A stretch of 64,000 bases of DNA, from positions 1,054,001-1,118,000 of the forward strand of contig JABVCE010000013.1 in NCBI GenBank assembly GCA_014905635.1, given 5' to 3'. Position 1 is the first letter of the stretch, and the number at the start of each line of letters is the position of its first letter. Below, in pieces: positions 1,363-53,466 of this stretch. The notes beneath the pieces were generated by a model. It was given only the letters and a program-made list of their open reading frames with translations, made no database searches and had not been told where the DNA came from. The position numbers and the translations under genes are program-made. This DNA is from Scenedesmus sp. PABB004 (Eukaryota).

Positions 1363-1859
1363 GGCTGGCGCCACGTGCAACTACGACACCGCGGCAAGCG
1401 CGCAGCTGAGGGTACCGCCGCGGGCAGGCCGTCAGCAGCGGCGGCGTCGTTTTGGCGGGTGACGCCCGCCGACCGCAGATCGGCGCAGGTCGCCGCCGGC
1501 GCTCGCCGTCGCCGCGCTCCCTTGCGCTGCCGTGGACCAGCGCGCGACCGCCCGGCCGGCCTGCGCGCCGCGCGCCCGCCACCAGCTCTTGCGCTCGGCC
1601 TGCCGAGCTCCTGGGCCGCGTCTTGGGCCTCGATCAATCCCGCGGGCACGTTGCGCTGCCACCCACCTCGCCGGCGCACCGCGTCGCGGCGGCGTCGACA
1701 AACCCGGCATCGGCAGCCTGGGCCGGCCTTCCCCAGCCCGCCCCGCCCTCGCCGCGTGGCCCGCAGGCCACGGTCGAAGCCCGCAACCCCCGCGTCGCGC
1801 GCTGGGGTGCAGCCGCTCATCATCAGCAGCCGCAGGGAGCAGTCGCCTGAGAGCGCAAG

Positions 1860-2572
1860 ATGGCCGGCGCCGGGGGCCCGCTGGAGGTGCCGGCATGGGG
1901 CGTCGCGCTGCTCTTCATCGGCTTCCTCGTGCTCACCCTCATCTGGGACAAGGCCATGCACTCGCTGGAGTGCCTGCTCAAGCGCAAGGGCAAGCGCGGC
2001 CTGCTCGAGGTGCGGCGCGGCCGGCGGCGGCGGCGAGGGCCGCCCGCGGCGCGCGGCGGCATCATCGAGCCCGCGCTGCGCGCAGGTGGTGCACCACCTC
2101 AAGGACGAGCTCCTGGCGGTGGGCGTGATCTCGCTGCTGCTGCCCTTCGTTGAGGTGCGCGGGGCGCGCGCGCGATCGGCGACGACCGCGCCGGCGCCGG
2201 CGGCGGCGGCCCGCCGTCGTCGCCCAGCCGCTCACGCACGGCGCTGCCCTGCTCCCCGGCCCGCCCTGGGCCTGGCGCTGCCCAGGTGTACATGATGCTG
2301 ATCTGCGTGCCCAAGGGCCTCGCGCTCTCGGCGCCCGCGTACGGCAAGGTCGGCGTGACCGGCGCGCGGCGCCTGCTCGCCGCGGCAGCGGCGCTGGCCG
2401 AGCCGGCCGGCCACGCGGCCGAGGCGGCCAGCCACTCGGCCGTGCCGCTCGGCGGCGGCGTCGGCGAGAAGGCGGACTACGCGACGAGCAGCAGCCACGC
2501 GTGCGGGCCGGGCAACGTGCAGCTCTACCCCGTCGAGGCCATCCACGGCACCCACATCTTCATCGCAATGGT

Positions 2573-2603
<31 letters not shown>

Positions 2604-5489
2604 TGCCGCGGGCCGCGCTGTGCTGCTGTGCTGGCGGGCGCGGCGGGGCGGCGGCGCGGGGCGGGCAGTGGCGCGTGGCCGGGCGGGCGGGCGGGCGCGG
2701 CCGCGCCGTCGGCCGAGCGCGCACGCGCCCCCTCCTCGCCGCCAGGTGGCCATCGTGCACATCGGCTACTCCTGCCTCAACATGCTGCTCTGCCTCGCGC
2801 GGGTGCGGCCGCCCACCCCGCCGCGCCGCGCACGCTGCCACGCGCCGCCGTGCGCGCGCCGCGCGCTGCTGCCGCCCGCCGCGCAACTTACGCGCCCGCG
2901 GCGCCCTGCCGCGCCCGCCGCGCCCGCCGCACCTGCGCCGCGCCCGCCGCCGCGCGCAGCTGCACCGCTGGCGGCGCTGGGAGGCGGCCGCGTGCGGGAG
3001 CCCCGTGATCCGCGTCAGCCAGCGCATCGTCGCGGCGCTCGCGCGCAACCCCTTCACCCACGGCCTCGTGTCGGTCGTCAGCCAGTTCAGCCTGAGCGTC
3101 AACCAGGACGTCTACTGCGCCGTGCGCCGCCTCTTCCTGGAGCAGCTCAAGCGCCAGACCGGCAGCGAGAAGCTGCCCTCGGCCTTCCCCTTCCTCAAAT
3201 TCGTCAAGGCACGGCGGCGCAGCCTGGGCCAGACGCACGCGCCGCGCGGGGGGCACGCGCGCACCACGCGTGCGCGCGCGCGCTGCGCGCCGCCGCAGCC
3301 GCCGCGCTCACCGCGCCGCGCCGCGCCGCGCCGCGCCGCGCCGCGCGCTCGCCGCCCCGCAGGAGACGACCGAGACGTCGCTGGGCAGCGTGATCGGCGT
3401 GTCGTGGTACATGTGGGGCTTTGCAGTCATCCACCTTATCATCCCATACCCCTACCGCGCCTACAGGTGAGCCCGCCGCCGGGCGCCGGTGCCCGCGGCC
3501 ACACGGCGCGCCGCTGGCGGCTGCCGCCGCCGGTGGCCGAGCGGTCACCGCCGTGTGTTGTTTGTTTGTTTGCTGTGCGCGGTGCGCGACTGCCGCCACG
3601 AGCGCCGCCACCAGCACGCGCCCGTCCACGCGCCCGCCCACCCGCCCGCGCCCGCGCGCCGCGCCGCCGCGCCCGCAGTCTGGTGGCCATCTGCGTCGTT
3701 GGAATGATCCTCATGCTCATCGCCGGCGCCAAGCTGCACAGCGTGGTCGTGCACCTCGCGGCACGCGCGCAGGCGCTGTACGGCGTCGAGTCGATCGCGG
3801 AGCACGCGGCGAGCGTGTCGATGCGGCGCGAGAGCTTCCTGACGTCGCGCGGCTCCGCCGAGGTGCCGGCGCTGCCGGCGGGCAAGGACGCCGCCGCGGT
3901 GCCGAGCAAGGACGCGGACGACGCGCCGAGGTGCGCGGGCGGCGCGGCGCACGCGCGCGCGCGGGCGGCGTGCGGCGGCAGCGGCGGCGCGGAGCCCGCG
4001 CGCGCGCGCCGGCGGCCGGCGCAGCGCCCCAGCGCGCCTCGCGGCCCCCGCACACCCGCGCCCGCCCGCCCGCCCGCGCCGCCCGCCCGCCCCGCCCGCC
4101 CGCCCGCCCGGCGCGCCGCAGCCGCGTGAGCAGCGCGCAGAGCGATGCGCGGCCGCGGTCGCCCGCCTTTGGCGCGGCCGCCAAGCCGCAGCACCGCATC
4201 CGCCACCACCTGCACAAGCAGCGCGCCGGCATCGGCCGCCTCCACGACGGCATGACGCACCGCATCAAGACCGACGAGGCGCTCGAGGAGCTCTTCTGGT
4301 GCGCGCGCGATCTCCACAGCGCGATCTCCACAGCGCCGCGCAACCCGCCGCGCGCCCCCCGCCCGGCCCCACGCCGCGCCACCGCGCCGCCGCGCCCGCG
4401 TTCTCACGCGCGCCCGCCCGCCCGTGCCCGCCGCCCGCAGGTTCAAGCGCCCCAAGCTCATCCTGTTTTTCTACAAGATCGCCTTCTTTGAGAGCGCCTT
4501 CTGCCTCACGCTGCTGCTCTTCGGGCTCTGGTGCGCGGCGGAGCCGTTGTCCAGGGCTGACGGGAGGGTTGACCGAGGCTTCTTCGCGCCCAGCCGCCCC
4601 GGCCGGCCGCGCCGCCGCGACCGACCGCGCGCGCCGCGCCGCGCCGCCTGCTGCCTTTTTTTGCAGGAAGGACAACCAGTTCCTGCCCGACTTCAAGTAC
4701 TACCGCGGGCAGTTTGTGGCCTACATCATCGTCTTCATCGTCAACATCGGCCTCTGCGTCTACCAGGCACGCGGTGCACACGCGCACATGCGCCGCGGCG
4801 GGGGGATGCGCGGGGCGGCGGCGCGCAGGGCGGCGGGGATTCGCAGGGCGGCGGCGGCGCGGCGGCGGCGGCGTGGCGGCGGCGCGGCGGCGGCGCGCAG
4901 CAGCGGGAGCGGGGGAGCGCCGTGCGCGGGGGAGGCGGGCGCCTCACGCCGCCACGCGCCGCCCGCCCGCCCGCATGCACGGCCACGCGCGGGATGCGCA
5001 GAGCGGCGCGGTGCTGCCTGTTTATGCCCTGGTCAGCACGGCGGACAGCCAGGCGGTCACCGCGGCGGGCCTCTTCCTCAGCGCCAACCTCAGGCGCGCA
5101 CCCGCCGTCGCCGCGGGCCCTGCGCGCCGCCGCCGCCGCGGGCCTCGTGCGCCGCCGCGGGCGCCGCGCGCCGCCGTCGACCCGCCCCGCCCCGCGCTCT
5201 GCTGCCGCCGCCGCCGCGCAGGCACAAGGAGGCGCGCGCGGCGGGCGAGGAGGCGGTGTCGCGCAAGGAGGCGCACGAGGCGATCCTCAAGCTCCAGGTG
5301 CTCAACACCATCAACATGCTGCACAACCTGGGCGGCCCCAGCAACGGCGGCGCCCGCGCGCCCATCACGGGCCACGGCTGGGCGCGCGTGCGCGCGGCGC
5401 TGCACCAGGGCGCGTTTGCGCCCGGCGGCGCCGCCGCGGCGGGGCGCGACGCCGCGCCGGAGCGCGACCTCGAGGCGGGCGCGCCCTGA
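1860..5489 (+). CDS. MLO: MLO-family seven-transmembrane protein (multi-exon)
   Basis: Spliced product has MLO hallmarks: LEVPAWGVALL...LKDELLAVGVISLLL, CGPGNVQLYPVEAIHGTHIFIAMVAIVHIGYS, WRRWE, VIGVSWYMWGFAV, EELFW|FKRPKLILFF, VLPVYALVS. Stop at 5489. Confidence 0.92.
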
Positions 5490-6535
5490 GCAGCAGCGCG
5501 GCGGGGCGCGGACGTCCAAGGGGAGGGGGGGGAGGGGCTCGAGCGGGCGCTGTGCTGCTGCGCGCGTTGACGCGCGGCGCCGCTGCCACATGCCGATGCC
5601 GCGCGCCGGCTGCGAGCGCACGTTGAAAATGAGTTGAATAGCGGGCGCGGCGTCTGCCGCCGCGGGTGCGTCGTGGGCGAGGCGTATGCCAAGAAAGGGC
5701 GGGTTGCTTGCGTTGCTTGGCAGCGCCAAGCGCATGAATGACTGCCGCGCGGCGCCCCGCGGGCCGCCGCCGCGCCGGCCGGACTCGGCCTATGAATTGC
5801 TGTGCAGCGTAGCGGGTCACGAGGACATGTCGGACGGTGTGCACCCGGTGGGGTTTCAAATGGCTGAGGTGCTGGGACCGCCAATGGAGTCGGGGGTTTC
5901 CATCGCGCTGGCGGCGTGCTCGGCACTTGCAGAACTAGGCTTGTGCCGCGCCAGTGCAGCAACGGCTCGACTGAACTGGAGTCCGGCAGTGGTGTGCCGC
6001 CGGGCGGCAGCGCTGCAAGGGATCGCTGGCCCGTGTGTGGACGCGCGAGGCGGCTGCGCGCGCCGGCCGCCCGCGCCCTGGACCGCGCGCCGCGCCCTGA
6101 ACCGCGCGCGCCGCGCCTGGTCCGCGGCGCCCGCCGCCGTGCTCAGAGCCCGGCTGCCCCGCACAGCTGCGCGGCCCGACGCCCAGCAGCAGCTGCGCAC
6201 GCGCCGTCCACGCAGCAGCAGCGCCCGCCGCGCGCCGCAGCGCCGCCGCAGGCCTCGCCCTCCGCGGGGCGACCTCGACTTGCGCGCCCGGCGCTGGTCG
6301 CCACCGCACGCACCCCCCGGCGCGCCCGTGGCGAGGGCAGCGCGGCGCCGCTGGCCGCGGGCGCGCCGCCGCCAGCGCGCACAGCCTCTCCCGGCCAGCC
6401 GCTCAAGCCGCTCCCTGCCCGCCGACCGGCCAGGCGCGTGCTGCCGACGCCGCCGGCGCACGCTGCGCGCCACACGCGCACGGCCGCGCCGTCGACGCCG
6501 CCGCTGCTGCCGCGTTTGCAGGGGTGCGCGCTGCG

Positions 6536-7248
6536 ATGTCTGACAAGGCCAGCGGCGGGCGGGCTGGCCCCAGCAGGCGGCAGGCCGCCCGGGCGACGCC
6601 CAGCGGCGACGCCAGTGCGGCAGGCGCGGCAGGCGCGGCGGCCGCTGGGCAGCAGCAGCGCGAGGCGGGCGGCAAGCGCGCACGCCACGCCAGCGAAGAT
6701 GCCGCGCCGCCGGCCAAGAGGCGGGGCGTGGCCAAGGCCGAGCCCAAGCCCGACGCGGCGGCGGACCCGCAGCAGGCGGTGCTGGCCGCGCTGCAGCAGG
6801 GCGAGCAGGGCGCGGCAGCGGCGCAGCTGGCGGCCATGGCGCAGCCGGCCTTCCTGGACAGCCTGGGCGCAGCCTTGCAGCCGCGCGGTGGCGCCGTGCG
6901 CCTGCTGGCAGCGCTGGCGGAGCCGGCGCACGCGCAGATGGGGCGCCTGCTGCGCATCGCCTCTGACGGCGGCGAGCCCGAGGCGGCGCGCGTGGCGGTG
7001 CGCGTCGTCTGGCAGGCGTTTGACCTGGCGGGCGCAGCGCCGATGCTGGAGGCCGTGCTGGCGGCCGAGCAGGGCGTGCTCCTGCTGCTGCGCGCCTGCA
7101 GCGTGCAGCAGCAGGCGGCGGGCGGCCAGGCGGGCGAGCCCGACCTGGAGGACGTGGCCGCCCGCATCACCAGGGCCGCGACCAGCAGCTCCTGGCCACA
7201 GCTGGTGCCTGCTCTCGTGGAGGTGATTGCACAAGAGCAGCAGCAGCC

Positions 7249-7305
<57 letters not shown>

Positions 7306-8558
7306 GCGGCGCTGGTGTGCTGCAGCAGCGACCGAGCTGCTGGACGAGGTGACCCAGGCCCGTGCGTGTGCGCAAGAGCTGCTGGCACCTCACGCCGCGA
7401 CGCTGCTGTCGGCGGCGATGCAGCGCGGCGAGGACGCACAGATGCAGATTTTGGCAGTCAAGGCCGCCAGGAGAGTCTCTGCTCACGCCAGCCTGCGGCC
7501 GATGCTGCCTGAGCTCCTGCAGCTGATCGCTGCTGCCGGGAGCACGCAGCTGCAGGTGGACACAGGCATACGGGTGGGGGCTTTGGTTGGGCTGCGCAGC
7601 GCGGCGGGGCGGCACGTGCTGGTGCAGCACGCCGGCGCTGTCGCGGGCGCGGTGGCGGCGGTCCTGCGCATGCCGTTCTCGGGCGGGGCGGCGTTCGGGT
7701 ATCGAAGCTATAGCCGGCAGCAGGATGCGTTTGCACTCATCACTTGTGGCACAGCATGGCGCGTCGCAGCTGGCGCAGGCGGGGGCGCCGCTGGTGCAGC
7801 TCGTGGACGCGTTTGCCAGCCTTCCTTCCGGCACAGGTGGCATTGTTTCCGACACAGACATTGGCAGCGCTGTCCAGGTGCTGGCGCTGCTCGTGCCACT
7901 GCCGGCCGCGCACCCCGTGCTGCTGCGGAGCGAGGGCCTGGACCTGCTGGTGGGAATGACGGATCGGTATGTTTGGTATGGGATCGGCGGCGGCGAGCAG
8001 CGCGTGTCCGCGTGCCTGCGCAGCCTGGGCGTGCTGCTGGCGCACTCGCGCGCTGCGGCGGCCGGCGGCGACGCCGCCCGCGCGCGGCTGGGCGCCGCCG
8101 TGACCGTGGAGCACGTGCAGCTCCTGGTGGACGGGCTGGCGCGTGTCGAGCGCAGAGACTTGCACGTGGAGCGCGCCGTGTGCCTCTGGGCCTGCTTGCT
8201 CGCCGAGGTGCCGCGCGCCCAGCTGTGCGTGGGGCTGTTCCTGGACCAGCTGAGGGCCCTTGTGGAGCGGGTGGCGGCTGAGCAGCAGCGCACGGGGGAC
8301 GGCGACGGGGCAGCCGCCCTGCTCGCTGAGCTGGAGGCAGCCGCTGCCGCCGTCGCGGCGCTGCGGCAGGAGGCGGTGCGCGCGCGGCTGGACACGCAGC
8401 AGCTGGCGGTGAAGTGCGCCGAGGCGTGCCTGCGCGCGCACACGGTGCCCGGCGACGGCAGGCACGCGGCGCTCGCGTCTGCGGTGTCGCGCAAGCTCGC
8501 AGCGGCGCTCGTGGCGCACGAGACACTCGCGGCGGACGTGGCGCGCTTTTGCGGCTGA
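6536..8558 (+). pseudogene. Intronless alpha-helical (ARM/HEAT-like) protein gene, copy A, frameshifted at ~7747
   Basis: Paralog of the intact ORF at 23971-25986. Here the reading frame is split between ORF 6524..8281 and ORF 7587..8558 because atcacttgtggcacag is 2 nt shorter than atcacttgtgtcgcgcag in copy B. Confidence 0.75.
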
Positions 8559-9491
8559 GCTCGGCCTCTTGAGAGGGCGCTCGTGTGGCCCTCGGTCGGT
8601 GACGGTTGAGTTGCGAGGCGATGTGTGTTAAGTGACACATCACGCCGTACGACGTGCAGCCGCCAGACCCGTTCGTTCGCGGTCCGGCCAGCGCAAGCTG
8701 GCGAGCCCCCGATCAAGAGGGGCAAGCCAGGTTCGAGGATCAGTCCAGTTCAAGGACCACTCAGCCACAGCCACAGCCGCAAGCGGATGAAGCAAGGGGA
8801 TGAGCGCGCAAGCAAGGGAATGCGCGGCCAAGGCAAGAAGAAGGGAATGACGCTGGGCGCACGCCTGCAGGGCACAGGCACGTGCCTGCTCCGCACAGGT
8901 GCCCGCATATACCTTCTCCGCGTTTCTGTCTGGTAAGGGTAAGTAAGAAAAGAAGGCCGGACTAATGAGGCTGCACATGGTAGCTGGTGCGCCCTCCAGC
9001 TAGCTCAACTGAATGCAGCTAAAGCCCCCGCCCAACACCCACAGACGCGCGCTTGACAAGGACAAAAACCATGGTGTTTGCCCCACCCACCCCAGCTGGA
9101 AGGTTTATCCATGCCCGCACTGCGCGCCTGGTAGGCGTTCGTGCAGGCGGCTGCTGTGCAGGTGCGCCCAGCCCTGCGACGTACGTGGTGCAACTCGCGT
9201 CGCCGCAAGACGCCCCGTGACGCGCCTCTTGGGCCGCAGCCAGAAAAAAAGCAGGGCTTTAGGACGCGGCGCTGGCCGCGTGGCCCGGCCGCATTATGCA
9301 ACGCGTGCTGCCGCACGAGGCCACCCGACGCGGCCGCGGGCCCGCAGTCGTTCAAAGGGGCCTCGCCGTGGCGTCGGCCGCGCGTGTGCCGAGGAGACTC
9401 GATGCGCAGAGACTCCTTGGCGCGGGCTCCAACGCTGCGGTCAACCTGGGCCCCCTGTCGGCACGTTATTCCGCGCCGCCGCCGAGCGCTC

Positions 9492-12400
9492 TCAGCCCTG
9501 CGCGCCCGGCAGCTGGCTGTTGGGCGCGACGCACGCGGTGCCCTTGTTGTTTGGCTCCTGGCCCGCCGGGCACGCGCGGCAGGCGTCGGTGGTGCCGTCG
9601 TTGAAGGCGGGCGGGCTCTGGCTGCGGCAGTGCAGCGTGCAGGGCTCCTTGGCGCCAGCGGCGTCACCGTAACCAGCGTCGCAGACTGCGGCGCGAGGCG
9701 GGCAGGGCGGGCGTCAGCGCTGCCGGCAGAGCAGTGCGTGGGAAAGCGCGCGCTGCGCTGCGCTGCGCTGCGCTGTGCTGCGCTGCGCCGCGCGCCGCCG
9801 CTGTGCTGCCCTGACGCCGCAGCGCAGATGCTCACCAGACGCAGCCAGCGGCGTGCAGAAGCTCGCGCCCGCCTGTGAGGTCTCGTCCGCGTCGCAGGCC
9901 TGGCAGCTGCCAAACATGCCGTTGTTGAACGTGCCGGGCGCGCACTGCGTCGTGCACGCCGGCGCGCCGCCGTAGCCGGCGTTGCAGGCTGCGCAGCGGC
10001 GGGCGTGGCGGGCGGCGGGGTCAGCGGGCGGGCCGGGACGAGTGCGCGTGGGCCGCCGCGGGGGGTGGCGCGCACACGTCAGCAGGCGCGTGCGCGCGGC
10101 AGCGCACACTCACTTGTCCGGGGGACGGCGACACACTCCGCCAGCGCGCGCGCGCCGGCCGCCGAGCTGGTGCCGGCAGGGCAGGGCTCGCAGTCCCGGA
10201 AGGTGCCGTCGTTGTAGGTGCCGGCGGGGCAGCGCTGCTCGCACGTGAACAGGCCGCCCGTGCCGGCGGGGCACTTGGCGTCCGGCGCGCGGCTGAGGTC
10301 GGCGCGGCCCCAGTCGGGGCTCGCAAACCAGCTGCGCACGCCGATCTGGTCCTCGCCGCCGCGCAGCGCAAAGCCCTTGCCGGGGACGTAGATCCAGCCC
10401 CAGCACGCCGCGTTGGTGGCGCACTTGGCGGCGCAGGCGGCCTCGTCGGCGCACTCGCCCCACGACACCGCGTCCACCGCCTCCACCAGCGCCCGGTCCG
10501 GCGGCGTGCCGACCTTGCCCGCCGCCGCGAGCGCGGCCATGGGCGCGCCCATCGCGCAGCGCGCAAACGCGCCGGCGCCGGTCTGCTGCGTCGTCTTTGC
10601 GGTGACCTTGTCGGCGCTCGCGCCGGCCACGAGCTGGCTCGGCGGCAGCTTGTAGAAGAACGCCGCGCCAGAGTAGGCGGGGCCCACGGGCGCGAGCTCG
10701 GCGCGCTTGCACGTGCCCGCGCCGCCGGCCTCCCACTGCACCACGCAGCACTGGCTCGGGTCGCACGCGGCCATGCAGGCCGCCATGTCGGCCGCGCCGG
10801 CGTCGACGGCAAAGAGCGAGTCCGGCAGCGCCAGGCGCGCGCCGGCGGGCGCCGGCAGCTGCGCGTAGCGCGGCACGCAGCCGTCCACGCCGGTCGCGGA
10901 GGTGAAGGTCACGCCGTAGGACGTGTACTTGTCACCCACGGGGTGGTTGAACGCCGTGGAGGGGCAGGCCGAGCACCACAGGCTGCTGCCGTCCTGCGTC
11001 TTGCCGCTCTCGCAGGGCGCGCAGTCGCTCGTGCTCGTGCTGTTGGGCTTGGACGACGGGATGCCCCAGCCAGGCGCGCACACTGCGGGACGCGCGGACA
11101 AACAACAGGGACGAGAGGCAGAGAGAGGTGAGCGGGCGGCCGGACAGGGCGCGGCGAGCGCCCGAGGCCAGCACCGCACAGCGTGGCGGCGCGCGGCCGC
11201 GGCGCTCACCGTCGCAGGCGGCCGAGCCGGCGGCGGACGACCACTGCCCGCGCGGGCAGGGGAGGCAGGTGGGGTTGCGGCTGGGCTGGCCGGCATCGCT
11301 GTCTCCGGGCTGGTAGAGGCCGGCAGGGCAGGCCACAGCGGGCATGCTCGCGTCCGCGTTGGCCGGCGCCCAGGGCTGCGCCGCGTCGTTGGAGAAGACG
11401 CCGTACCCGGGCGGGACCTTGCAGTCGCGCACGGAGGCCTGGAAGGTGCCGTTGCCGGGCACGTACGCGGTCACGCGGCCGTCGGGGCAGAGCTGGCACG
11501 GCCCCATGCGGCCCTTGGGCGCGTACGAGTTGTCGGGGCACTGGTTGGCGCCCTCGCTGGTGTAACTGTAGCCCTTGGGGTTCTTGCAGTCGTTGAAGCC
11601 CGCCGAGCCCGGCGCCGAGAGCAGGTTGCTCGGGCAGGGCTTGCACGGCGCTGCGCCGAGGCCGTAGACCGTGGTGACCGCGCCATACATGTTGGCGGGG
11701 CAGGGCTTGATCGCCATGTACGCGTTGTACGTGCCGTTGGCAAACAGGGACGTGTCCAGGCCCATGCCCCAGCCCGGCAGGATGTCTGCGCATGGGCGGC
11801 GAGCCGGCGGCGCGGCAAGGCGAGTCAGCGACGGCCGCGGGCGCGGCGCTGCGCGCGTGAGGCGCGCGCCCGGGGCGGGCGCCGGCGCCGGTGCTCACAG
11901 CAGGCGGTGGACGTGGACGCGACGTAGCCGGGGCGCGGGTCGTTCGGCACGAGGCCGGCAGAGGCCTCGTCGACGTCCACGAGCGCCGCCAGGATGTCCT
12001 TGCCGCACGCCGTGCACGCGGCCGCGCTGTCGGCGCCGCTCGCCTCGGACACGGCCACCCAGCCGGTGCGGTAGTAGCCCTGCCCGGTCGCGACGTCCGT
12101 CACGCACTTGTCGAGCCGCGGCGCCGCGCCGGGCGCGGTCTTGATGTAGTAGCCGGGCGGGACCGCTGCGCAAGCGCGCGGCAGCGCGGTCGGCGGCCCG
12201 CGGCGGCAGGGCGCGGCGGCGGCAGCGCGCGAGCGCGGCGGGGTAGGCGGCGGGCAGCGCCGCGCGGCCGCGCGCACCGCAGTCGTCGGCGGTCGTGGAG
12301 CCCACGTCGCGCGTGGTGGCGGCCGAGGGGCAGCGGATGCAGGCCAGGGTGGTGCCGTTGCCGAAGAAGCCGATCGGGCAAAAGCTGACGTTGGTGGGGT

Positions 12401-23970: not shown

Positions 23971-25213
23971 TCAGCCGCAAAAGCGCGCCACGTCCGCCGC
24001 GAGTGTCTCGTGCGCCACGAGCGCCGCTGCGAGCTTGCGCGACACCGCAGACGCGAGCGCCGCGTGCCTGCCGTCGCCGGGCACCGTGTGCGCGCGCAGG
24101 CACGCCTCGGCGCACTTCACCGCCAGCTGCTGCGTGTCCAGCCGCGCGCGCACCGCCTCCTGCCGCAGCGCCGCGACGGCGGCAGCGGCTGCCTCCAGCT
24201 CAGCGAGCAGGGCGGCTGCCCCGTCGCCGTCCCCCGTGCGCTGCTGCTCAGCCGCCACCCGCTCCACAAGGGCCCTCAGCTGGTCCAGGAACAGCCCCAC
24301 GCACAGCTGGGCGCGCGGCACCTCGGCGAGCAAGCAGGCCCAGAGGCACACGGCGCGCTCCACGTGCAAGTCTCTGCGCTCGACACGCGCCAGCCCGTCC
24401 ACCAGGAGCTGCACGTGCTCCACGGTCACGGCGGCGCCCAGCCGCGCGCGGGCGGCGTCGCCGCCGGCCGCCGCAGCGCGCGAGAGCGCCAGCAGCACGC
24501 CCAGGCTGCGCAGGCACGCAGACACGCGCTGCTCGCCGCCGCCGATCCCATACCAAACATACCGATCCGTCATTCCCACCAGCAGGTCCAGGCCCTCGCT
24601 CCGCAGCAGCGCGGGGAGCGCGGCCGGCAGCGGCACGAGGGGCACCAGCACCTGGACAGCGCTGCCAATGTCTGTGTCGGAAACAATGCCACCTGTGCCG
24701 GAAGGAAGGCTGGCAAACGCGTCCACGAGCTGCACCAGCGGCGCCCCCGCCTGCGCCAGCTGCAAGGCGCCATGCTGCGCGACACAAGTGATGAGTGCAA
24801 ACACATCCTGGTGCCTGCGATAGGCTTGAGACCAGGGGGCCGGAATGCGCAGGACCGCCGCCACCGCGCCCGCGACAGCGCCGGCGTGCTGCACCAGCAC
24901 GTGCCGCCCGGCCGCGCTGCGCAGCCCAATCCAAGCCCCAACCTGCATGGCTGTGTCCACCTGCAGCTGCGTGCTCCCGGCAGCAGTGATCAGGTGCAGG
25001 AGCTCTGGCAGCATCGGCCGCAGGCTGGCATGAGCAGAGACTCTCCTGGCGGCCTTGACTGCCAAAATCTGCATCTGTTCGTCCTCGCCGCGCTGCATCG
25101 CCGCCGACAGCAGCGTCGCGGCGTGAGGTGCCATCAGCCGGCTCGAAAACCCGTGGGCCTGGGTCAGCTCGCCCAGCAGCTCGGTCGCTGCTGCAGCACA
25201 CCAGCGCCGCCGC

Positions 25214-25258
<45 letters not shown>

Positions 25259-25986
25259 GGCGACGGCGACGGCGGCGGCGACTGCTGCTGCTGCTCTTGT
25301 GCAATCGCCTCCACGAGAGCTGACACCAGCAATGGCCAGGAGCTGCTGGCCGCGGCCCTGGTGATGCGGGCGGCCACGTCCTCCAGGTCAGGCTCGCCCG
25401 CCTGGCCGCCCGCCGCCTGCTGCTGGACGCTGCAGGCGTGCAGCAGCAGGAGCACGCCCTGCTCGGCCGCCAGCACGGCCTCCAGCATCGGCGCTGCGCC
25501 CGCCAGGTCAAACGCCTGCCAGACGACGCGCACCGCCACGCGCGCCGCCTCGGGCTCGCCGCCGTCAGAGGCGATGCGCAGCAGGCGCCCCATCTGCGCG
25601 TGCGCCGGCTCCGCCAGCGCTGCCAGCAGGCGCACGGCGCCACCGCGCGGCTGCAAGGCTGCGCCCAGGCTGTCCAGGAAGGCCGGCTGCGCCATGGCCG
25701 CCAGCTGCGCGGCTGCCGCGCCCTCCTCGCCCTGCTGCAGCGCGGCCAGCAGCGCCTGCTGCGGGTCCGCCGCCGCGTCGGGCTTGGGCTCGGCCTTGGC
25801 CACACCCCGCCTCTTGGCCGGCGGCGCCGCGTCTCCGCTGGCGTCGCCGCGAGCGCGCTTGCCGCCCGCCTGGCGCTGCTGCCCGGCAGCGGCCGCGCCT
25901 GCCGCGGTGGCGTCGCCGCTGGGCGTCGCCTGGGCGGCCTGCCGCCTGCTGGGGCCAGCCCGCCCGCCGTTGGCCTTGTCAGACAT
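23971..25986 (-). CDS. Intronless ~671 aa alpha-helical (ARM/HEAT-like) protein of unknown function, copy B (intact), with N-terminal basic NLS-like motifs and polyQ
   Basis: Single ORF from ATG 25986 (MSDKANGGRAGPSRR...GKRAR...PPAKRRG); amphipathic helical repeats such as LLRSEGLDLLVGM. The fold assignment is by eye only. Confidence 0.7.
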
Positions 25987-26570
25987 CGCAGCGCGCACCC
26001 CTGCGCAGCGGCGGCAGCGTCGACGGGCGCGGCCGTGCGCGTGTGGCGCGCAGCGTGCGCCGCCGGCGTCGGCAGCACGCGCCTGGCCGGTCGGCGGGCA
26101 GGGAGCGGCCTTGAGCGGCTGGCCGGGAGAGGCGGCTGTGCGCGCTGGCGGCGGCGCGCCCGCGGCCAGCGGCGCCGCGCTGCCCTCGCCACGGGCGCGC
26201 CGGGGGGTGCGTGCGGTGGCGACCAGCGCCGGGCGCGCAAGTCGAGGTCGCCCCGCGGAGGGCGAGGCCTGCGGCGGCGCTGCGGCGCGCGGCGGCGGGC
26301 GCTGCTGCGCAGACGGCGCGTGCGCAGCTGCTGCTGGGCGTCGGGGCGCGCAGCTGTGCGGGGCAGCCGGGCTCTGAGCACGGCGCGGCGACGGGCACCG
26401 CGGACCAGGCGCGGTTCAGGGGGCGGCGCGCGGTCCAGGGCGCGGGCGGCCGCTCGCAGCCGCCGCGGGCGTCCACACACGGGCCAGCGATTCCTTGCAG
26501 CGCTGCCGCCCGGCGGCGCACACGCAGGCCCCCGCGCCGCGCCGCGCCGCGCCCGTGAGCCCGTGCTCGC

Positions 26571-28430
26571 TCACGGGTCCCCGCCGCCGCCGCCGAGCTT
26601 GCCCGGCAGAATGCCCGCCATCTTGGCCAGGCCCTCGCGCGTGCGCGCTGCGGTCTGCTGCATGCTGAACGGCTTGAACAGCGCGGGCTTGGCCCCGCCG
26701 CCGTCGCCGCGCGGCGCGCCCGGCGAGCCGCCGCCGCCGTCGCCGCGCATCGACATGCTGCTCGCCAGCTCACGCGTAAAAGTGTTGACGCTGAGCTTGA
26801 GCGCGCTCAGGTTGGCCGCCGCGCCGCCGGGGCCGCCCAGGCCGCCAAAGCCGCCGCCGCCGCCGCCGCCGCTGCCGCTGCCAAAGCCGGCGGCCGGGCC
26901 GCCGCTGCCGCTGCCGACGCCGGCGCCGCCCGGGGCGCCCCCGCTGCCGCTGACAGACCCGCCGGGCGCGCCCGCCGCCGCAGCCACGCCGGGCGGGTGG
27001 TGCGGCCCCGGGCTGGCGCCGCCGCCCCCGCCGCCGGGCGCGGCGTCGATGCCGCCGCCGCCGCCGCTGCTGCCGCCCACCTTGCGCCCGTACTGCGCGA
27101 CCAGCTCGCCCGCCAGCTTCTTGGTCAAGCCCTGCGCGCCGCGCCCGGCGGCGTTGCCGCATTCAGGGGCGCGCGGCGCACGCGCCGCGCCGCGCGCCGC
27201 ACACGGTCCTCGCCGCACGGCGCGGCACGCCGTGCCCGCGCCCAGCGCGCCCAGCGTGCCCCGCGCGCCCAGCGCGCGCCTTGAGGTCGCAGACGCGGGC
27301 CAGGTCGTGCGGCGTGCGCGCGCCGGGGGGCATGAGCAGGATGAAGGTGTCGACCAGGTTCTCCGGCTTGGCCTGCGCCGCCGCCACAGCGCGCGACGTG
27401 GCGCGTCGGCGGCGCGCGCGGCCGCGGCGTGCGCGGCGGCGCAGGGCGGCGGCGCGGGGCCCACGGCGCGGGGGCGCCCAGCGCGGGGCTGCCGCCCGCA
27501 CGCGCACGCGCTGTGCCCCGCCGGCACGGCCGCGCCGGCCGGCCGGGCGGTAGCTCCGCCGCCGGCGCGCGGCGCACCTGCAGGACCTTGACCAGGTTCA
27601 CCGCGCCGCCCATCTCCCGCTCCACGTAGTGCGCGTACGGCGCCGAGTCGGCGCCGTCGTCGAGCGGGCGCGCCACGCGCGGCAGCTCCAGCAGCAGCCG
27701 CCGCACGCTGTCGGCGTCGATCGCCAGCTGCAGCGTGCCCTTCTCGCTCACCCTGTGGGCGCGGTGGCGCGGTGGCGGCGCGGCGGCGCGGCGGCGCGGC
27801 GGGGCGGGGCGGCGGGTCGGGCGCCGCCCCGCGCCCGCCTTCTCCCCCCTCCGCGCCTGCTGCCGCCGCGCGCCCCGCGCGTCAGAGGCCCCCCCCCCCC
27901 CGCCTCACTTGCGCAGGCGGTAGATGGTCTCAATGAAGCGCGGCACAAACATGCGGCCCATCTTGTCACAGAAGAAGGCAAACTGCCCCCGGTCGAGCGC
28001 CGCGCCGAGCCGCGGCGCCGCCTCGACCAGCAGCGTACGCCGCATCGCCGCGACGTACGGCGAGTCGTCGCCCGGGCTGTCGATCGCGTCCCAGCGCACG
28101 CGCAGCATGTCCTGCGGCCCGCGGCCGCCCCGCGGCGCGGCGTCGCGCGCAGCCCGCGGCCGGCGCGGCGGCGGCGCGTGCGCGGCAGGCGGCGCCGCGC
28201 CGGTCCGGTCCGGTCACCTGCAGGCAGGCGTCGAGGCGCGTGTTGACGCCGAGGACGAGCACGCTGAGGCACTGGCTCGCGACGCCCGTGAACGCGCTCT
28301 CCTCCTCGCCCAGGTCCACCTCCAGCGAGGCCCGCGCGCTGCTGCTGGCGCCGGGCTTGACCTCCTTGGCGATGAGCCGCCCCAGGCCCTCCGTCGTCTC
28401 CCTGCCAGAGGCGGCGGCGGCGGCGGTCAC

Positions 28431-28473
<43 letters not shown>

Positions 28474-31400
28474 GGGCGGGGCTCAAAGGCCCAGCGCCGC
28501 ACATCGCCGTGCCGTGCTGCGCCGCGCCGCACCGGCAGTACTCTGCCGTGGCGAGGATGGCCGCCAGCACCGCCTCCTCCTCCTCGGGCAGGCGCACGTG
28601 CCAGTCGGTGCCCGCGTACGGCGCCTGCGCGCTCGTGCCGCCCGCCGCGGTCTTGGGCAGGCGGCGCAGCAGCTCGCCGGCGTACGCCGACAGCACGCGC
28701 TGCGGGCGGCGGCGGCGGCGACGGTGGGCCGGGTCGGCGGCCGGGTCGGCAGCCGCGATCGGCAGCCGCGGCCGGCAGCCGCGGGCGGCAGCCGCGGTCG
28801 GCAGCCGCGGCCGGCAGCCGCCGCGCGGCGGGCCTGGCGCGGCGTGCCTTGAACGCGCCCGCGAGGCGGACGAGGGTGATGCCGCGGCTGACGAGCTTGA
28901 CGCAGCGGTGCAGGCTGGCCCGGATCTTTATGAACAGCGCGTTGGCAGAGCCGAGCACGCGGCTGCAGCGCCACCGGCAGCGGCGGCGGCGGCAGCGGTG
29001 AGAGCCGCACCAGCCCCGAGCGCCGCGCACGCGGCCGCCATCATGCGCGCGCGCGCGCGCGGCCCCTGCCGCCGCGGCCGCGCGCCCACCTGCCCTCGCC
29101 CTCGGGCGGCTTCCAGCCGCGCTCGCCCTCCTCGCGGATGAGCTGCTCGAGGTGCTTCAGCAGCTGCGGCGCCGCCGGCAGGCACGGGGCGGGCCGGGCG
29201 GCGCTCGCCGCGCCCGCCGCACGCTGCGCGGCGCGCCGCCCCGCCCGTGCGCAGCACGCCCCGCGGCGCGGTGTGCCGCACCTCCTTCTGCTCCTCCGCC
29301 ACGTAGTGCTGCAGCGCGTCCTCAAAGGCCTCGCTGATTGCGCCCTCAAACGCGACGCGCGCCGCCGCCGCCGCCGCGGCCTCGGCCGAGCCGCCGGCGG
29401 CGCCCGGCGGCGCGCCGCCGCCGCCGCTGCCGGCCGCCGCGGCCGCCGCCTTGGCCGCCGCCGCCGCGGCCGCGGCCTGCTGCTTCTTCCGGAACGCCTC
29501 CAGCCGCCGCCGCGCCTCGCTCGCGGGCAGGCTGTCGACGTCCTGCGGGCAGCGGGTGCGCGGCGCGCGTCGCCGCCCCCCCGCGCGGGACGGGACGGAC
29601 GCGCCGGGCCGCCGCCGCCGCCGCCACCCCGGGCGCCGCAGCCGGCGCGGTCGCCGCCGCGGGCACCGCGGGCGCCGCACCTGCAGGTCGTCCTCGTCGT
29701 CGCCCGCCGCCGCGCCGCCAAAGAGGGCGGCCATCTCGCGCTCAAACTTGTTGGCCGCCACGACCGTCTTGATGAGCGGCCCCACGTCCGCGCGCACCAG
29801 GTCCTCGCTGTCGCTCAGCAGCCGCTTCACCGCCGCCTGCGCACGGCGCCGCGGCCGCGGCGGCCGCGCGAGCTCGGCGCCGGCTCGGCAGTGCGGGCAG
29901 GGCACGCGGCCGCCGCCGGCGCCGCCGCCGCCGCCCGCCCGCCGCGTCCATCCCCTCGCGCCTTTGTGATCTTGCAGAAGGTCAGGCAGAGCATCTGCGG
30001 CACGCGCCACGCGGGCGGGAAGACCTCCCACACCTCCCTGCGCTCCTCCAGGCGCGCCTTGAACCACGCGAAGCGCCGCTCAAACCTGCGCCGCGGCGGC
30101 GGCGGTCGGGGCCCGCGCGGCGCGCCGGGACGCTCGGGACTGCTGCCGCGCTGCTGCCGCGCGGCGGCGGGCGCCGCCGCTGTGGGCAGGCAGCGCGCGC
30201 CTGTCGAGCTTGGCCGCGTCGCCGCTCATGGAGAAGATGGTCTGATAGACCGTCATCTCCCGCTCACACAGCCAGTCCATGAGCGTGTCGCGCACCTGGT
30301 GTTGGGTAACAGCACAGCAGCGGCGCGCGGCGCGGGCGGGGCGGGGCACGCGGCGTGGGCGGCGCGGGCGCGCGGGGGCTGCGCGTGGCGCGGCCCGCAG
30401 GCGGCGCCCGCGCCCCCGCGCGCCTTGGGCCCCAGCGCGTTGACCACGAGGCAGGCGTTGGTGAGGCGCTCGACGTTGTCGGGCGTGAGCTTCGCGTCGC
30501 TCGTGCCCAGCAGCAGCTTGAAGTCGTCCAGCACCGCGTCCTGCAGCCCCGCCTGCGCGCCGCCGGGCGCGCGCGCGCGCGGGCCGCCGCCGCGTGGGCG
30601 CGCGCCGCGGCGTGGCGGCGCCCGCGCGCGCTTTACTGCCGCCGCCTGCGCCCGCGCGCCTGCACGACGGCGAGGCGGCGGCTGAGGCTCTGGATCTTGG
30701 GGACGTCGGTGTAGTGCGCAAAGTGCTCGAGCAGCTGCCCCACCGCCTCCAGCAGGTTGGCGCAGCGCTTGTACTGGTCCCGACGGTACCCGACCTGCGC
30801 GCGCCGCGCCGCGGCGGGCAGGCGGCGGCGGCGCGTGCGAGGCGGGGCTGCTGAGGGGGGACGAGCCGGGGAGCGCGCGGCGCCGCGCGGCGGCGAGCGC
30901 GCCCGTGCGGCGCCGCCGCGCCTGCTCGAGGTCGTCCACGGCCGCCGTGAGCATCGCGAGGCGGCGCAGGCTGGTGATGGTGTGCGTGAGGTGGCGCTTG
31001 GCGCAGTCGAGCTGCGCGCGCACGGCGGCGCGCGCCGGCGCGCGGCGTGGGGCGGCGCGCGTCGCCGCCGCGTGGCCGCGCGCGCTGCGCGGCCGTGCCT
31101 GCGGCCGCCCGCCGCGCCGCGCCCCCCCCCCCCCCCCCTCGCACCCACCTTGCGAATGTCGCGGCAAATCTCCTGCACCAGCACCTCGCTGTCCGCCGCC
31201 TTCTTCTGGATGTCTCGGATGCGGCCAAACAGGTCGGTGATCTGGCCCGTCGCGACGCTCAGGTCCTGCCTGCACGCGGCGCGGCGGGGCGCGGGCACGG
31301 CCCGGCGCCGCCGTCGGCGCGCCGTGCCGCGCAGCGCGCGCGTCCTGCGAGCGCGGCACGGCGCCGCGCCCGCGCCCCCGCGCCGCGCGCACCTGGACCG

Positions 31401-31924
31401 CGCCTGCGTGCCGCTCTGCGTGCGCACCGCCTGCACGATCTCCTTGTCGGCCGACTTGATCTGCGCCGGCGCCCGGAGCGGCGCGGGCGCGGCGGCTGTG
31501 GCCCTGCGCCGGCGCCGCCGCCGCCCGCGCGGCGCCGCGCCGCGCTGCCCTCTGCCGCGCGCCACAGCGTGTGGCGGCGCGCTGCGGCGGCCGCGCGCAG
31601 TGCACCTGCTTGCGCAGCATGTCGATGAACTTGTCCAGGTCGCCCAGCGAGCTCTCTGCGCAGGGCAGCGGCGGCGCAGCTCGGCGCCACAGGCAGCGCG
31701 CCGCGGCGGCGCTCGCGCGCACAACCAGCGCCCAGGCGCACGCGGGGCTGCCGCGTGCGCGCACCGTCGGGGTAGATTTGGTTCACAAACTTGGTGGGGT
31801 CGAAGTTTTCGGAGTCAAACACGTCGCTCTTGCGCTGGAAGGGCGACTTGAGCGTGACCGGCGCGGGCGCTGCTGCGTCGCCGCCGCCGCCGCCGGCGAG
31901 CGCGCCGGCCCCCGGCTCCGACAT
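26571..31924 (-). CDS. VPS53: Vacuolar protein sorting 53 (GARP/EARP complex subunit), multi-exon
   Basis: DVFDSENFDPTKFVNQIYPD|ESSLGDLD...DLFGRIRDIQKKAADSEVLVQEICRDIRK|LDCAKRHLTHTITSLRRLAML; WEVFPPAWRV; FEGAISEAFE; GTLQLAIDADSVRRLLL. Confidence 0.95.
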
Positions 31925-34668: not shown

Positions 34669-35232
34669 CCAGGCCGGGCGCGGCGGCGGCGGCGGGGGCG
34701 TGGGCGCAAACTCAACCCAACTCTTTGTGCTAGCGTTCTGTGCGGTGGCGCGCTGGCAACGCACAGTCCCCCCTCCGAGCGCGCCCGCGCGCGGCAGGCC
34801 GCGACAGCGGCGCCCCGGTGACGCGGCGCGGCGGCGGCGCTGGGGCACGCTCCGCGACAGCGGTGAAGCTTTCCAGACCGCCCGAGCGCGGGTGGCAGCG
34901 GAGGATGCCGCTGCGCGGCGGGGCGGGCGCCAACGCCCACCACGCGCGCCCGCCCTGCGCCTCGACCCGCCGCGCAACCGCCCCGCGGGAGCAAGTATGT
35001 GCGATCGCGCGCTGCACGCCGCGCCCCTGGCCGCGCCGCGCGCCGCGCGGAGGTGCACGGGCGCTGAGCGGCGTGAACGTGTACACGTCGCCATGTTAGC
35101 TCCGGCCCCGTGCCGTTCATAGCCCCTCTCGCATCGCCTGTCCCGCATAAATCCTCGTCGTGCGCACCCACGCCCAGCGCGATCCGTCGTGCGCACCTCC
35201 CACCCGCCGCTCCGCCGCCCCGCCGCCTCCAG

Positions 35233-35709
35233 ATGGCCGCCGCCGCGCTCCGCGCCTCCTGCTCCGCTCCCATGGGCGCCGCTGCCCGCGTGTCGCGCCC
35301 GCGGTCGGTCAGCGTGCGGGCGCACCAGGTCACGCTGCGCACGCCGTCGGGCGAGCGGAGCTTCACGTGCGTGAACGACCGCTCGCTGCTGGAGGGCGCG
35401 CTGGCGGCGGGCGTGGAGGTGCCCAACCTCTGCCGCACCGGCACGTGCGGGGTCTGCGCCGCGCGCGTGCTCTCCGGCGACGTCGAGCGCAGTGACTTCC
35501 TGCTGGACGACGCGCAGCGGGTGAGTGCGCGCGGCGGCGGTCACGCGCGTTGACTGCCGGCGACCGCGCGGCCACCGCTCACGCGCCCGCCGCTGCCTCG
35601 GCCGCAGGAGTCTGGCTTTGCGCTGCTCTGCACCAGCAGCGCCCTGAGCGACGTCACGCTGGCCACAGAGCAGGAGACGGAGCTGCACACGGTGCCCTAC
35701 GGCCTGTGA
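35233..35709 (+). CDS. Plant-type [2Fe-2S] ferredoxin with chloroplast transit peptide (2 exons: 35233-35520, 35608-35709)
   Basis: PNLCRTGTCGVCAARV (CxxxxCxxC) ... GFALLC; transit peptide ends VSVRA. Confidence 0.93.
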
Positions 35710-36068: not shown

Positions 36069-41362
<5,294 letters not shown>

Positions 41363-52592: not shown

Positions 52593-53431
52593 ATGGCTGC
52601 GATAACCGCGCAGTGCGATTTCGTGGCGGCCGGGGTGAACCGCATCGTGGGGGCGCTGGACTGGGGCGACGCGGGCATCGCCTACGCCGCGCACGCGCTT
52701 GTGTGCGTCTACGACCCAGAGGTGCGGCGCGTCAGGGCCAGCACGGTCTAGCGCCTTCGCACGCCGCCGCAGGCAGGCAGGCGCTGTGTCGGCGGCAGCG
52801 CGCGGCGGCAGCGGCAGCAGCGGTGCGGCGGCCGGCCGCCCCATCCCAGCCGCGCCGCGCGGCGGCCTGCGCAGGCGGCGCAGGTGGTGGGCACGCTGAT
52901 AGGGCACCGTGGGCCAGTGAACTGCGTGCGCTGGCTGACGGCGGCGGCTTGCCCGCGGGGCGCGGCGCTGCTGCTCTCGGGCGCGTGCGACGGCGCGGTG
53001 CGCCTCTGGGCCTGGTTCGGCCGCCGCGCCGACCCGCCCTGGTGCTGCGTCGCGGAGCTCCAGGGCCACGCCAGCCCGGTGACGAGCCTGGCGCTGCACC
53101 AGCTCCCCGACGGCGACCTGTTGCTGGCGAGCACGTCGGCCGACCCAGTCTTGCGGCTGTGGCAGTGCAGCCCGGGCGACGGCGGCGGCGCCGGCGCCGG
53201 CGCGGCCTTGCCGGAGCAGCTGGCGGCGGCGTACGGCGCCGCAGCGTGGCGGCCGCAGGCGTCGGTGCACGTGGGCACCCACATCCAGCACTGCGTCGCG
53301 CTGGCGGCGCTGCCGGATGCCCCGCGCTGGCTGATCATGGCCACCGGCGGCACCGACTCGACCGTGCGCCTCTTCGTGCGCGGCCCCACGTGCGAGCAGC
53401 AGGGGGAGCAGCAGCAGCAGCAGCAGCAGCA

Positions 53432-53466
<35 letters not shown>

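Follow-up and report, generated by a model that had tools for sequence, protein, structure and literature searches.

Within 64,000 nucleotides of the genome of the scenedesmacean green alga Scenedesmus sp. PABB004 (GenBank assembly GCA_014905635.1, contig JABVCE010000013.1, positions 1,054,001 to 1,118,000 of the forward strand; this whole stretch is called the window, and positions are counted from its first letter), a palindrome is formed by the inverted duplication of a two-gene unit of ~8.8 kb in the nuclear genome. The unit consists of an outer gene and a lectin gene, and its two copies, arm A and arm B, are arranged around a spacer that carries a gene for red chlorophyll catabolite reductase (RCCR). 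Divergence between the arms falls into sharply bounded levels, from a 4.5 kb core with six substitutions to an adjoining 480 bp island in which almost one site in five differs. The best reading of this pattern, and one that we hold to be probable, is an old inverted duplication that has been partly and repeatedly homogenised by arm-to-arm gene conversion.

Overall structure of the palindrome

The palindrome is composed of the following three segments:

5993..14774, arm A (8782 bp), reverse complement of 17788-26521; both of its boundaries, outer and inner, are sharp
14775..17787, spacer (3013 bp), unique, not palindromic, without arm-to-arm homology
17788..26521, arm B (8734 bp), reverse complement of arm A

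Self-blastn of the window returned the two arms as a single alignment (5992-14774 versus 26521-17788; 96.44% identity over 8820 columns, 191 mismatches, 72 gap openings, E = 0), and in the global MAFFT alignment homology begins at 5993/26520 and stops at 14774/17788. Within 100 bp beyond both arm boundaries, including the spacer ends, identity drops to ~42-44%, the random level. The arm coordinates proposed in a first-pass annotation, which had been made from the letters of the window, were right to within 4 bp, and its spacer length of 3013 bp was exact. A repeat search of positions 1-40000 gave 13 inverted repeat pairs, 12 of which (I1-I12) tile both arms; the last one (I13) is a 71% low-complexity match. 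No third DNA-level copy of the arms was found within the window by self-blastn, and no N is present anywhere in it.

The G+C (GC) content of the window is 71-82% in 2 kb windows, with 74.7% in the arms, 79.6% in the spacer, and 78.5-79.2% in the flanks (up to 79.6% over flanks and spacer). GC content falls to ~60-70% where the 3' ends of the outer gene and the lectin gene converge (~8600-9500). The assembly as a whole comprises 39.8 Mb in 77 contigs, equal to its 77 scaffolds, with an N50 of 1.3 Mb, 78.5% GC, and 1.31% repeats (excerpt of PMC12571836).

Mosaic divergence between the arms

The MAFFT alignment of arm A with arm B contains 229 substitutions in 8701 ungapped sites together with 24 indel events. 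The dispersion index of the substitutions, counted per 200 bp, is 14.7, whereas 2000 permutations averaged 0.95 and did not exceed 1.77. The longest identical runs measure 2325, 989, and 517 bp, and the count of 2325 bp identical runs expected under uniform divergence is ~3e-25. The check for uniform divergence along the arms, which the first-pass annotation had put forward, thus gave strongly non-uniform divergence with sharp-edged levels. Segmentation of the arm alignment with a three-state hidden Markov model set the block limits as follows (arm A positions, with divergence between the arms):

5993-8044, outer zone, 5.0% (100 substitutions/2006 bp), patchy, with a 271 bp identical run at 6821-7091
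8045-9033, block with ~0.2-0.4%, including a 20 bp hot spot
9034-9164, block with 5.3%
9165-13643 (arm B 23367-18892), near-identical core, 0.13% (6/4476)
13644-14123 (arm B 18891-18419), old-divergence island (480 bp), 18.2% (86/473)
14124-14774, inner zone, 3.8%, comprising the first two exons and the first two introns of the lectin gene and the 79 bp before its ATG

The earlier observations that only a few differences exist across ~9500-13640, introns included, and that other patches are clearly diverged are both borne out by the core, by the outer zone at ~5%, and by the island at 18%.

The lectin gene pair and its divergence

Each arm bears a lectin gene, as had been supposed from the letters and as is now established by Pfam matches and by intact 12-exon models:

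9492..14695, minus strand, lectin gene A, 12 exons, 1298 amino acids, intact; exons projected from arm B via the alignment
17867..23043, plus strand, lectin gene B, 12 exons, 1296 amino acids; the spliced coding sequence translates exactly to the public protein P0003

P0003 (1296 amino acids) was retrieved by searching cluster representatives with an open reading frame of arm A. The introns of lectin gene B are canonical GT-AG introns of ~100-150 bp each; in lectin gene A all 11 GT donors and all 11 AG acceptors are kept, the frame of 1298 codons is open, and the only stop is the terminal one. P0003 matches Ricin_B_lectin with 35.4 bits (cut-off 29) and Ephrin_rec_like with 75.7 bits (cut-off 23.1), and the corresponding scores of P0066, the public model that covers lectin A, are 37.8 and 73.5 bits. 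Three to four Cys-rich repeats of the Ephrin_rec_like type exceed the Pfam threshold in the lectins. The motifs LQDW, NQRW, and AQRW, which we take to be Q-x-W-type motifs of ricin-B lectins, are kept in both copies, and the hydrophobic N-terminus, judged by eye, looks like a signal peptide. The ATG sits just 79 bp from the inner arm boundary.

The core takes in the lectin gene from within exon 4 to exon 12, with introns 4-11, as well as some of the 3' region; the island, which encodes the ricin-B domain, runs from exon 3 through intron 3 into the 5' part of exon 4. The two proteins differ at 35 alignment positions (33 substitutions and two one-residue indels), and 33 of the 35 lie at residues 95-226, in the ricin-B domain. 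The first-pass annotation had read correctly the two replacements FYKLPP/FYKPPP (residue 1006, L versus P) and PPPAPSP/PPPEPSP (residue 256, A versus E), as well as three synonymous changes in the converted part of the gene. By the method of Nei and Gojobori, residues 93-230 have a synonymous divergence (dS) of 0.33, a nonsynonymous divergence (dN) of 0.16, and an omega of 0.49, as against a dS of 0.0037 and a dN of 0.0008 from residue 231 to the end; 3.0 synonymous differences per 803 synonymous sites are found in the 3.2 kb coding stretch. None of the 936 sites of introns 4-11 has changed, whereas 21 of 123 sites differ in intron 3 (17.2%), next to 16.6% in exon 3. The 3' intergenic region of the lectin gene is 99% identical between the arms. 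In the inner zone, intron 1 differs at 12 of 127 sites (10%) and intron 2 at 5.5%, and exons 1 and 2 at 3/148 and 0/126 sites, respectively; the longest identical stretches, read off the difference list, are ~100-170 bp. This is the pattern of purifying selection without recent conversion, and the inner zone serves as an internal control.

Polarisation of the island by five outgroup homologues was symmetric, with 10 versus 10 sites. An asymmetry between the two ricin-B islands had been considered, as blast scores slightly favoured arm B, yet it was rejected on the polarised sites. The 90% protein cluster of the lectin contains just the two arm copies, which have adjacent locus tags, and no close third paralogue was found among the cluster representatives (best, 41-48% identical), a set that conceals paralogues of 50-90% identity. 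Distant tblastn matches of P0003 (23-28% identical, Cys-rich repeats) lie on the minus strand at 40219-41187, 49302-49841, and 56049-62091, which suggests that further genes with ephrin-receptor-like repeats may be present within the same 64 kb. A tRNA-Ala(ggc) was called by ARAGORN on the plus strand at 14451-14523, inside intron 1 of lectin gene A; in DNA so rich in GC the call is probably spurious, its arm-B counterpart being broken by indels and no Rfam match reaching the gathering score.

The outer gene pair

The second gene of the duplicated unit lies in the outer part of each arm:

6536..8558, plus strand, outer gene A, family unassigned; coding blocks 6536-7690 and 7791-8558, intron borders putative
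23971..25986, minus strand, outer gene B, copy of outer gene A, frame kept

The gene shows clear codon periodicity and an open frame in both arms, and the product is helical and rich in Ala, Leu, and Gln, with a polyglutamine (polyQ) run. All four indels in block 1 (12, 3, 15, and 15 bp) are multiples of three, and no in-frame stop occurs there. Block 1 has a dS of 0.061 and an omega of 0.87, and block 2 a dS of 0.014 and an omega of 0.66; the putative intron (7691-7790) is 15% diverged between the arms. The polyQ tract is encoded by a CAG microsatellite with 23 repeats in arm A (7236-7304) and 14.7 in arm B (25215-25258), and next to it the arm B copy has an extra Ser/Pro-rich insert. Other CAG-type runs of 60-70 bp are located at 888-960, 53394-53469, and 58263-58337.

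The label 'ARM-like', which the first-pass annotation had attached to this gene, could not be confirmed. No Pfam family was matched at E <= 1 beyond chance-level matches, and searches for homologues were empty, which is weak evidence, the candidates having probably been swamped by low-complexity words. Features of the ESM Atlas placed the protein near ARM, TPR, and V-ATPase-H clusters at 0.94, with a recognition value of 1874, under the mark of 2300, and the AlphaFold2 model predicted from the single sequence was mostly helical with low confidence (mean predicted local distance difference test score, 47). These language-model neighbours and this low-confidence helical model make 'ARM-like' a weak lead for the outer gene.

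Related sequences in freshwater metagenomes

Contigs of two freshwater-metagenome runs (X1 and X2; shares 0.06 and 0.05) were aligned to positions 4000-17787, that is, arm A and the spacer, so that arm-B-type sequence is visible in them only as variants. The contigs are short and 85-99% identical to the locus, an identity of 99% or more being reached by 38 of 189 in X1 and by 21 of 118 in X2; the freshwater material thus contains close relatives of the alga. Between arm A and one contig of X1 (record 2, 8476-9718) there are 40 differing sites, in a region where only 15 sites separate the two arms. Among the rows listed for this contig, it has the arm-B letter at 8 of 37, and it shares the 3 bp deletion of arm B at 9474; both 9474 and 13339 are represented by two forms in X1. 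These variants give a weak hint that arm-B-type sequence exists in independent DNA and that, among the rows listed, the two arms resemble each other more than they resemble the relative. One contig of X2 (record 16) bridges the inner boundary of arm A from 14583 to 14876 with 21 mismatches and 8 gaps. The contig joints among those listed have sides of 21-58 letters and look spurious. Screening of the metagenome contigs with P0003 gave 39 pattern matches and no confirmed relatives, and a degenerate RCCR motif had no match in them.

Probable gene conversion between the arms and alternative explanations

Selection is not the cause of the identical core, because introns 4-11 are identical and dS is 0.0037 there as against 0.33 in the ricin-B domain. 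The duplication is old, because the neutral sites that escaped homogenisation differ by 15-18%, with a dS of 0.33, which gives a minimum age; given that minimum age, the blocks at 5% and at 0.13% were reset after the duplication. Since both copies are inverted on one molecule, non-reciprocal exchange is the simplest mechanism of resetting, and we infer gene conversion from the two arms as others have done for sex-chromosome palindromes (excerpts of PMC3723533, PMC8600007, and PMC8981503). The first-pass annotation had proposed an older duplication kept homogeneous by arm-to-arm conversion, as in sex-chromosome palindromes; the introns, the dS values, and the sharp-edged levels uphold the former part, whereas the likeness to sex chromosomes is overstated for arms that are 96.4% identical overall and near-identical over only about half of their length.

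In the course of events that we propose, the two-gene unit would have been duplicated in mirror orientation around the RCCR spacer long ago, and the arms would then have exchanged sequence non-reciprocally several times, in tracts of varied extent and age. At least two or three rounds of conversion with differing tract limits would be needed. The latest tract or tracts would have reset the 4.5 kb core to 0.13%, and older ones would account for the divergence of ~5% over the outer 2 kb and of ~4% over the inner 0.65 kb; the ricin-B island and the putative intron of the outer gene would never, or not recently, have been converted. It is possible that tracts were halted at the edge of the island by the high local divergence, perhaps together with selection for two sugar-binding domains. 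The very sharp edge at 13643/13644 fits termination of tracts at high divergence. Chance escape or mismatch-driven termination of tracts explains the island as well as selection does, and selection on the island is not demonstrated by an omega of 0.49, by an exon 3 and an intron 3 that have diverged to the same degree, or by polarised sites that are symmetric. Both copies of both genes are intact, with 22 lectin splice sites kept and the indels of the outer gene in frame.

Three other explanations of the palindrome and its mosaic were weighed. The second arm might be an artefact of assembly, due for example to a chimeric long read or to the sequence of another haplotype or strain that was joined in the wrong orientation, or the core might have been made by polishing. 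Surveys report that artificial palindromes arise from mis-assembly (excerpt of PMC7953838); the scaffolding errors named there as a source do not apply here, because the contig is gap-free. The palindrome is known from the public contig, which has neither N nor gap and belongs to an assembly whose contigs are its scaffolds. A fold-back chimera predicts no spacer or a tiny one and near-perfect arms, whereas here a whole gene with a defined orientation is contained in a spacer of 3 kb, islands of 15-18% and in-frame indels occur in the arms, and the two flanks carry different unique genes. An allele of arm A would share the flanks of arm A, but arm B adjoins the VPS53 gene of the right flank and the opposite end of the spacer, so that a haplotype misjoin would need two independent false joins at the exact ends of homology; nor is a dS of 0.33 within a gene otherwise at 0.004 allelic variation. 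The metagenome, which is of other origin, has the arm-B letter at eight of the rows listed and two forms at 9474. Consensus polishing can homogenise near-identical paralogues, but it cannot turn 5-18% into 0.1%. An artefact is on balance unlikely.

It might also be that the inverted duplication is recent (~0.1%) and that ectopic conversion or patch repair later brought in the diverged patches from more distant paralogues of the lectin and outer genes. Distant paralogues of the lectin repeats do occur in the window at 40.2-41.2, 49.3-49.8, and 56.0-62.1 kb (tblastn, 23-28%), and cluster representatives cannot reveal paralogues that are 50-90% identical. The patches, however, are separate, in at least four places, and at several levels (the 18% island, 15% in the outer intron, 10% in intron 1, and ~5% over 2 kb), so that many independent imports would be needed, and they include non-coding sequence of the outer gene, which has no detected relatives. 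Further against imports, there is no third DNA copy in 64 kb, the 90% cluster consists of the two arm copies, and the island is symmetric; we regard this course of events as improbable. The remaining alternative, an old duplication without conversion in which the identity pattern reflects varying selective constraint, accounts for something in the inner zone, where exons 1-2 are conserved and introns 1-2 are diverged, so that constraint shapes part of the pattern. For the locus as a whole it is refuted in practice by the identity of introns and synonymous sites, and we give it almost no credence: eight introns in a row (936 bp) and the majority of synonymous sites in the 3.2 kb coding stretch are identical, although neutral sites 100 bp away differ by 17%, and the 3' intergenic region is 99% identical.

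Several points nonetheless weigh against repeated conversion of an old duplication. The copy number and both arm-spacer junctions are taken solely from the public assembly, and conversion is deduced from the two arms of this one assembly. A few real differences in the core could have been lost if short reads that map to several places were used for polishing, and the true divergence there may exceed 0.13%. Among paralogues of 50-90% identity, clustering could conceal an ectopic donor of the island. Finally, the arms are less GC-rich than the flanks and give no sign of GC-biased conversion.

Reciprocal exchange between inverted arms inverts the sequence between the points of exchange, and would invert the spacer here. 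Because the longest identical stretch is in the core, crossover is expected mostly there; with a crossover in the core each island would travel with its own spacer end, leaving the pairings of gene and promoter unchanged, and the flip of the spacer would probably be functionally silent. Only exchanges in the inner zone (650 bp) would swap the lectin copies between the spacer ends. One could imagine, with little confidence, that the palindrome is a device that keeps two sugar-recognition modules on a shared scaffold, the ricin-B domains being held apart by selection against homogenisation. If so, conversion would keep ~1070 lectin residues, the introns, and the 3' region identical in both copies; the copies, with only 79 bp upstream of the ATG within the arm, would be read from different ends of the RCCR spacer; and rare exchanges in the inner zone would swap lectin specificities between promoter contexts, amounting to a slow, recombination-based switch.

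The spacer gene and the flanking genes

The spacer and both flanks of the palindrome carry the following genes:

15280..16954, minus strand, RCCR, at least seven exons, single copy, in the spacer, 5' end towards arm B
1852..5387, plus strand, MLO-like gene of the left flank, own exon model; runs towards arm A
26571..31814, minus strand, VPS53 gene of the right flank, Vps53_N in three open reading frames and a C-terminal exon model; runs towards arm B

RCCR was located by an exon search and by the annotated protein; the stop-to-stop open reading frames of the spacer gave no Pfam RCCR match even at E <= 10. An exon of 56 amino acids is 69% identical to P0064 and 62% to P0065, two scenedesmacean proteins with PF06405, the latter of which carries the name RCCR from its source. 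The tblastn matches are colinear on the spacer over residues 67-342 of P0064 and 50-331 of P0065, and P0066 matches the Pfam family RCC_reductase with 29.5 bits (cut-off 24.9). The placement of RCCR in the spacer by the first-pass annotation is thereby confirmed; the actual N-terminus is possibly encoded further upstream.

The public model P0066 (1587 amino acids; 9495-16954, minus strand) consists of the seven RCCR exons (16954-15280) followed by lectin A, and its fusion intron from ~15280 to 14469 (~810 bp) skips the RCCR stop and lectin exon 1. The arm-B model P0003 starts at the homologous ATG and has the same hydrophobic N-terminal exon. To judge from these gene structures, P0066 is most likely a chimeric model of two separate genes, RCCR and lectin A. 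Between the locus tags of the two lectins, the public annotation hence lacks a separate model for RCCR. A practical use of the analysis is the correction that the public gene model of one arm needs, in which RCCR is wrongly fused to the lectin.

Both flanking genes had been named in the first-pass annotation and were recovered with these names. Six exons of the left gene match Pfam Mlo colinearly (profile positions 6-47, 50-68, 214-263, 268-291, 302-330, and 350-376) with 10-14 bits each, singly under the cut-off of 24 bits. The right gene has Vps53_N in three open reading frames, and its predicted stop lies ~50 bp outside arm B. Our own exon finder, trained on the lectin coding sequence, gave 11 of the 12 exons of lectin gene B exactly; it was poor on the Ala-rich outer gene, for which its model was not used. 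Farther to the right, 35077-35550 (plus strand) is an exon with a 2Fe-2S ferredoxin domain, and 37441-40541 (minus strand) contains exons with MIF4G/MA3 domains of the eIF4G type.

Comparison with known systems

The palindromes of primate sex chromosomes (P1-P8 of the Y and the X palindromes) resemble the algal locus in having inverted arms, a unique spacer, and intact paired genes in the arms, and also in that arm identity is upheld by non-reciprocal exchange in multi-kilobase tracts, with rare inversions expected (conversion in primate palindromes: excerpts of PMC3723533, PMC8600007, PMC8981503, and PMC8327919; Rozen et al. 2003 as cited in an excerpt of PMC7953838). Sex-chromosome palindromes have been defined, in an excerpt of bioRxiv 10.1101/800185, by arms of >10 kb with >99% identity, and the present arms, at 8.73-8.78 kb and 96.44%, lie outside this definition. 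Primate arms are tens of kilobases to megabases long and >99% identical, whereas here they measure 8.8 kb at 96.4%, and only the 4.5 kb core reaches 99.87%; unlike the primate palindromes, the algal locus has three levels of divergence, including an 18% island. Primate palindromes contain testis gene families, and the algal arms a lectin that is predicted by eye to be secreted, from its signal peptide, together with a protein of unassigned family. GC-biased conversion has been reported for the primate palindromes, whereas the algal arms are without GC enrichment. No evidence ties the algal locus to a sex or mating-type region.

In plastid genomes, the inverted repeats IRa and IRb undergo copy correction, and the single-copy region is inverted in a flip-flop manner. 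These repeats are alike in that recombination homogenises the inverted copies and that reciprocal exchange inverts the region between them. Unlike them, the algal locus is nuclear and incompletely homogenised, and its isomers are hypothetical.

Palindromes at the level of genes, defined as reverse-complementary collinear blocks, occur at low frequency in many genomes (excerpt of PMC7953838, on parthenogenetic animals), and those blocks are likewise able to support conversion. That survey, as far as its excerpt goes, rests on gene collinearity and warns of false positives, whereas the algal locus offers base-level anatomy, evidence from introns, and a gap-free contig. Searches of the literature on strain PABB004 and on palindromes and conversion in green algae and Chlamydomonas gave no description of this locus or of nuclear green-algal palindromes; the genome paper of the strain (J Appl Microbiol 2022, doi 10.1111/jam.15311) was outside their coverage. 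The process, arm-to-arm conversion, is a known one in an unusual organism and no new kind of biology. Outside animals, the locus offers a small, clean, and fully resolvable case of an inverted gene pair that has probably evolved in concert, and the genome around it is compact and poor in repeats. The introns of the locus, as neutral controls, together with the three levels of divergence make it a convenient natural system for the study of tract length and tract ends in a green alga.

Converted duplicates are reportedly known, from the theory of Innan and Teshima and from the opsin and RH gene pairs, to keep islands that are protected by selection or by divergence. The algal lectins are alike in that most of the pair is homogenised and one module, here the ricin-B domain, is diverged with sharp edges. 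In the algal island, unlike in such pairs, selection is not evident, with an omega of 0.49 and an intron 3 that is as diverged as exon 3, and the locus is suited to the question of whether divergence or selection shields a functional module such as this lectin domain.

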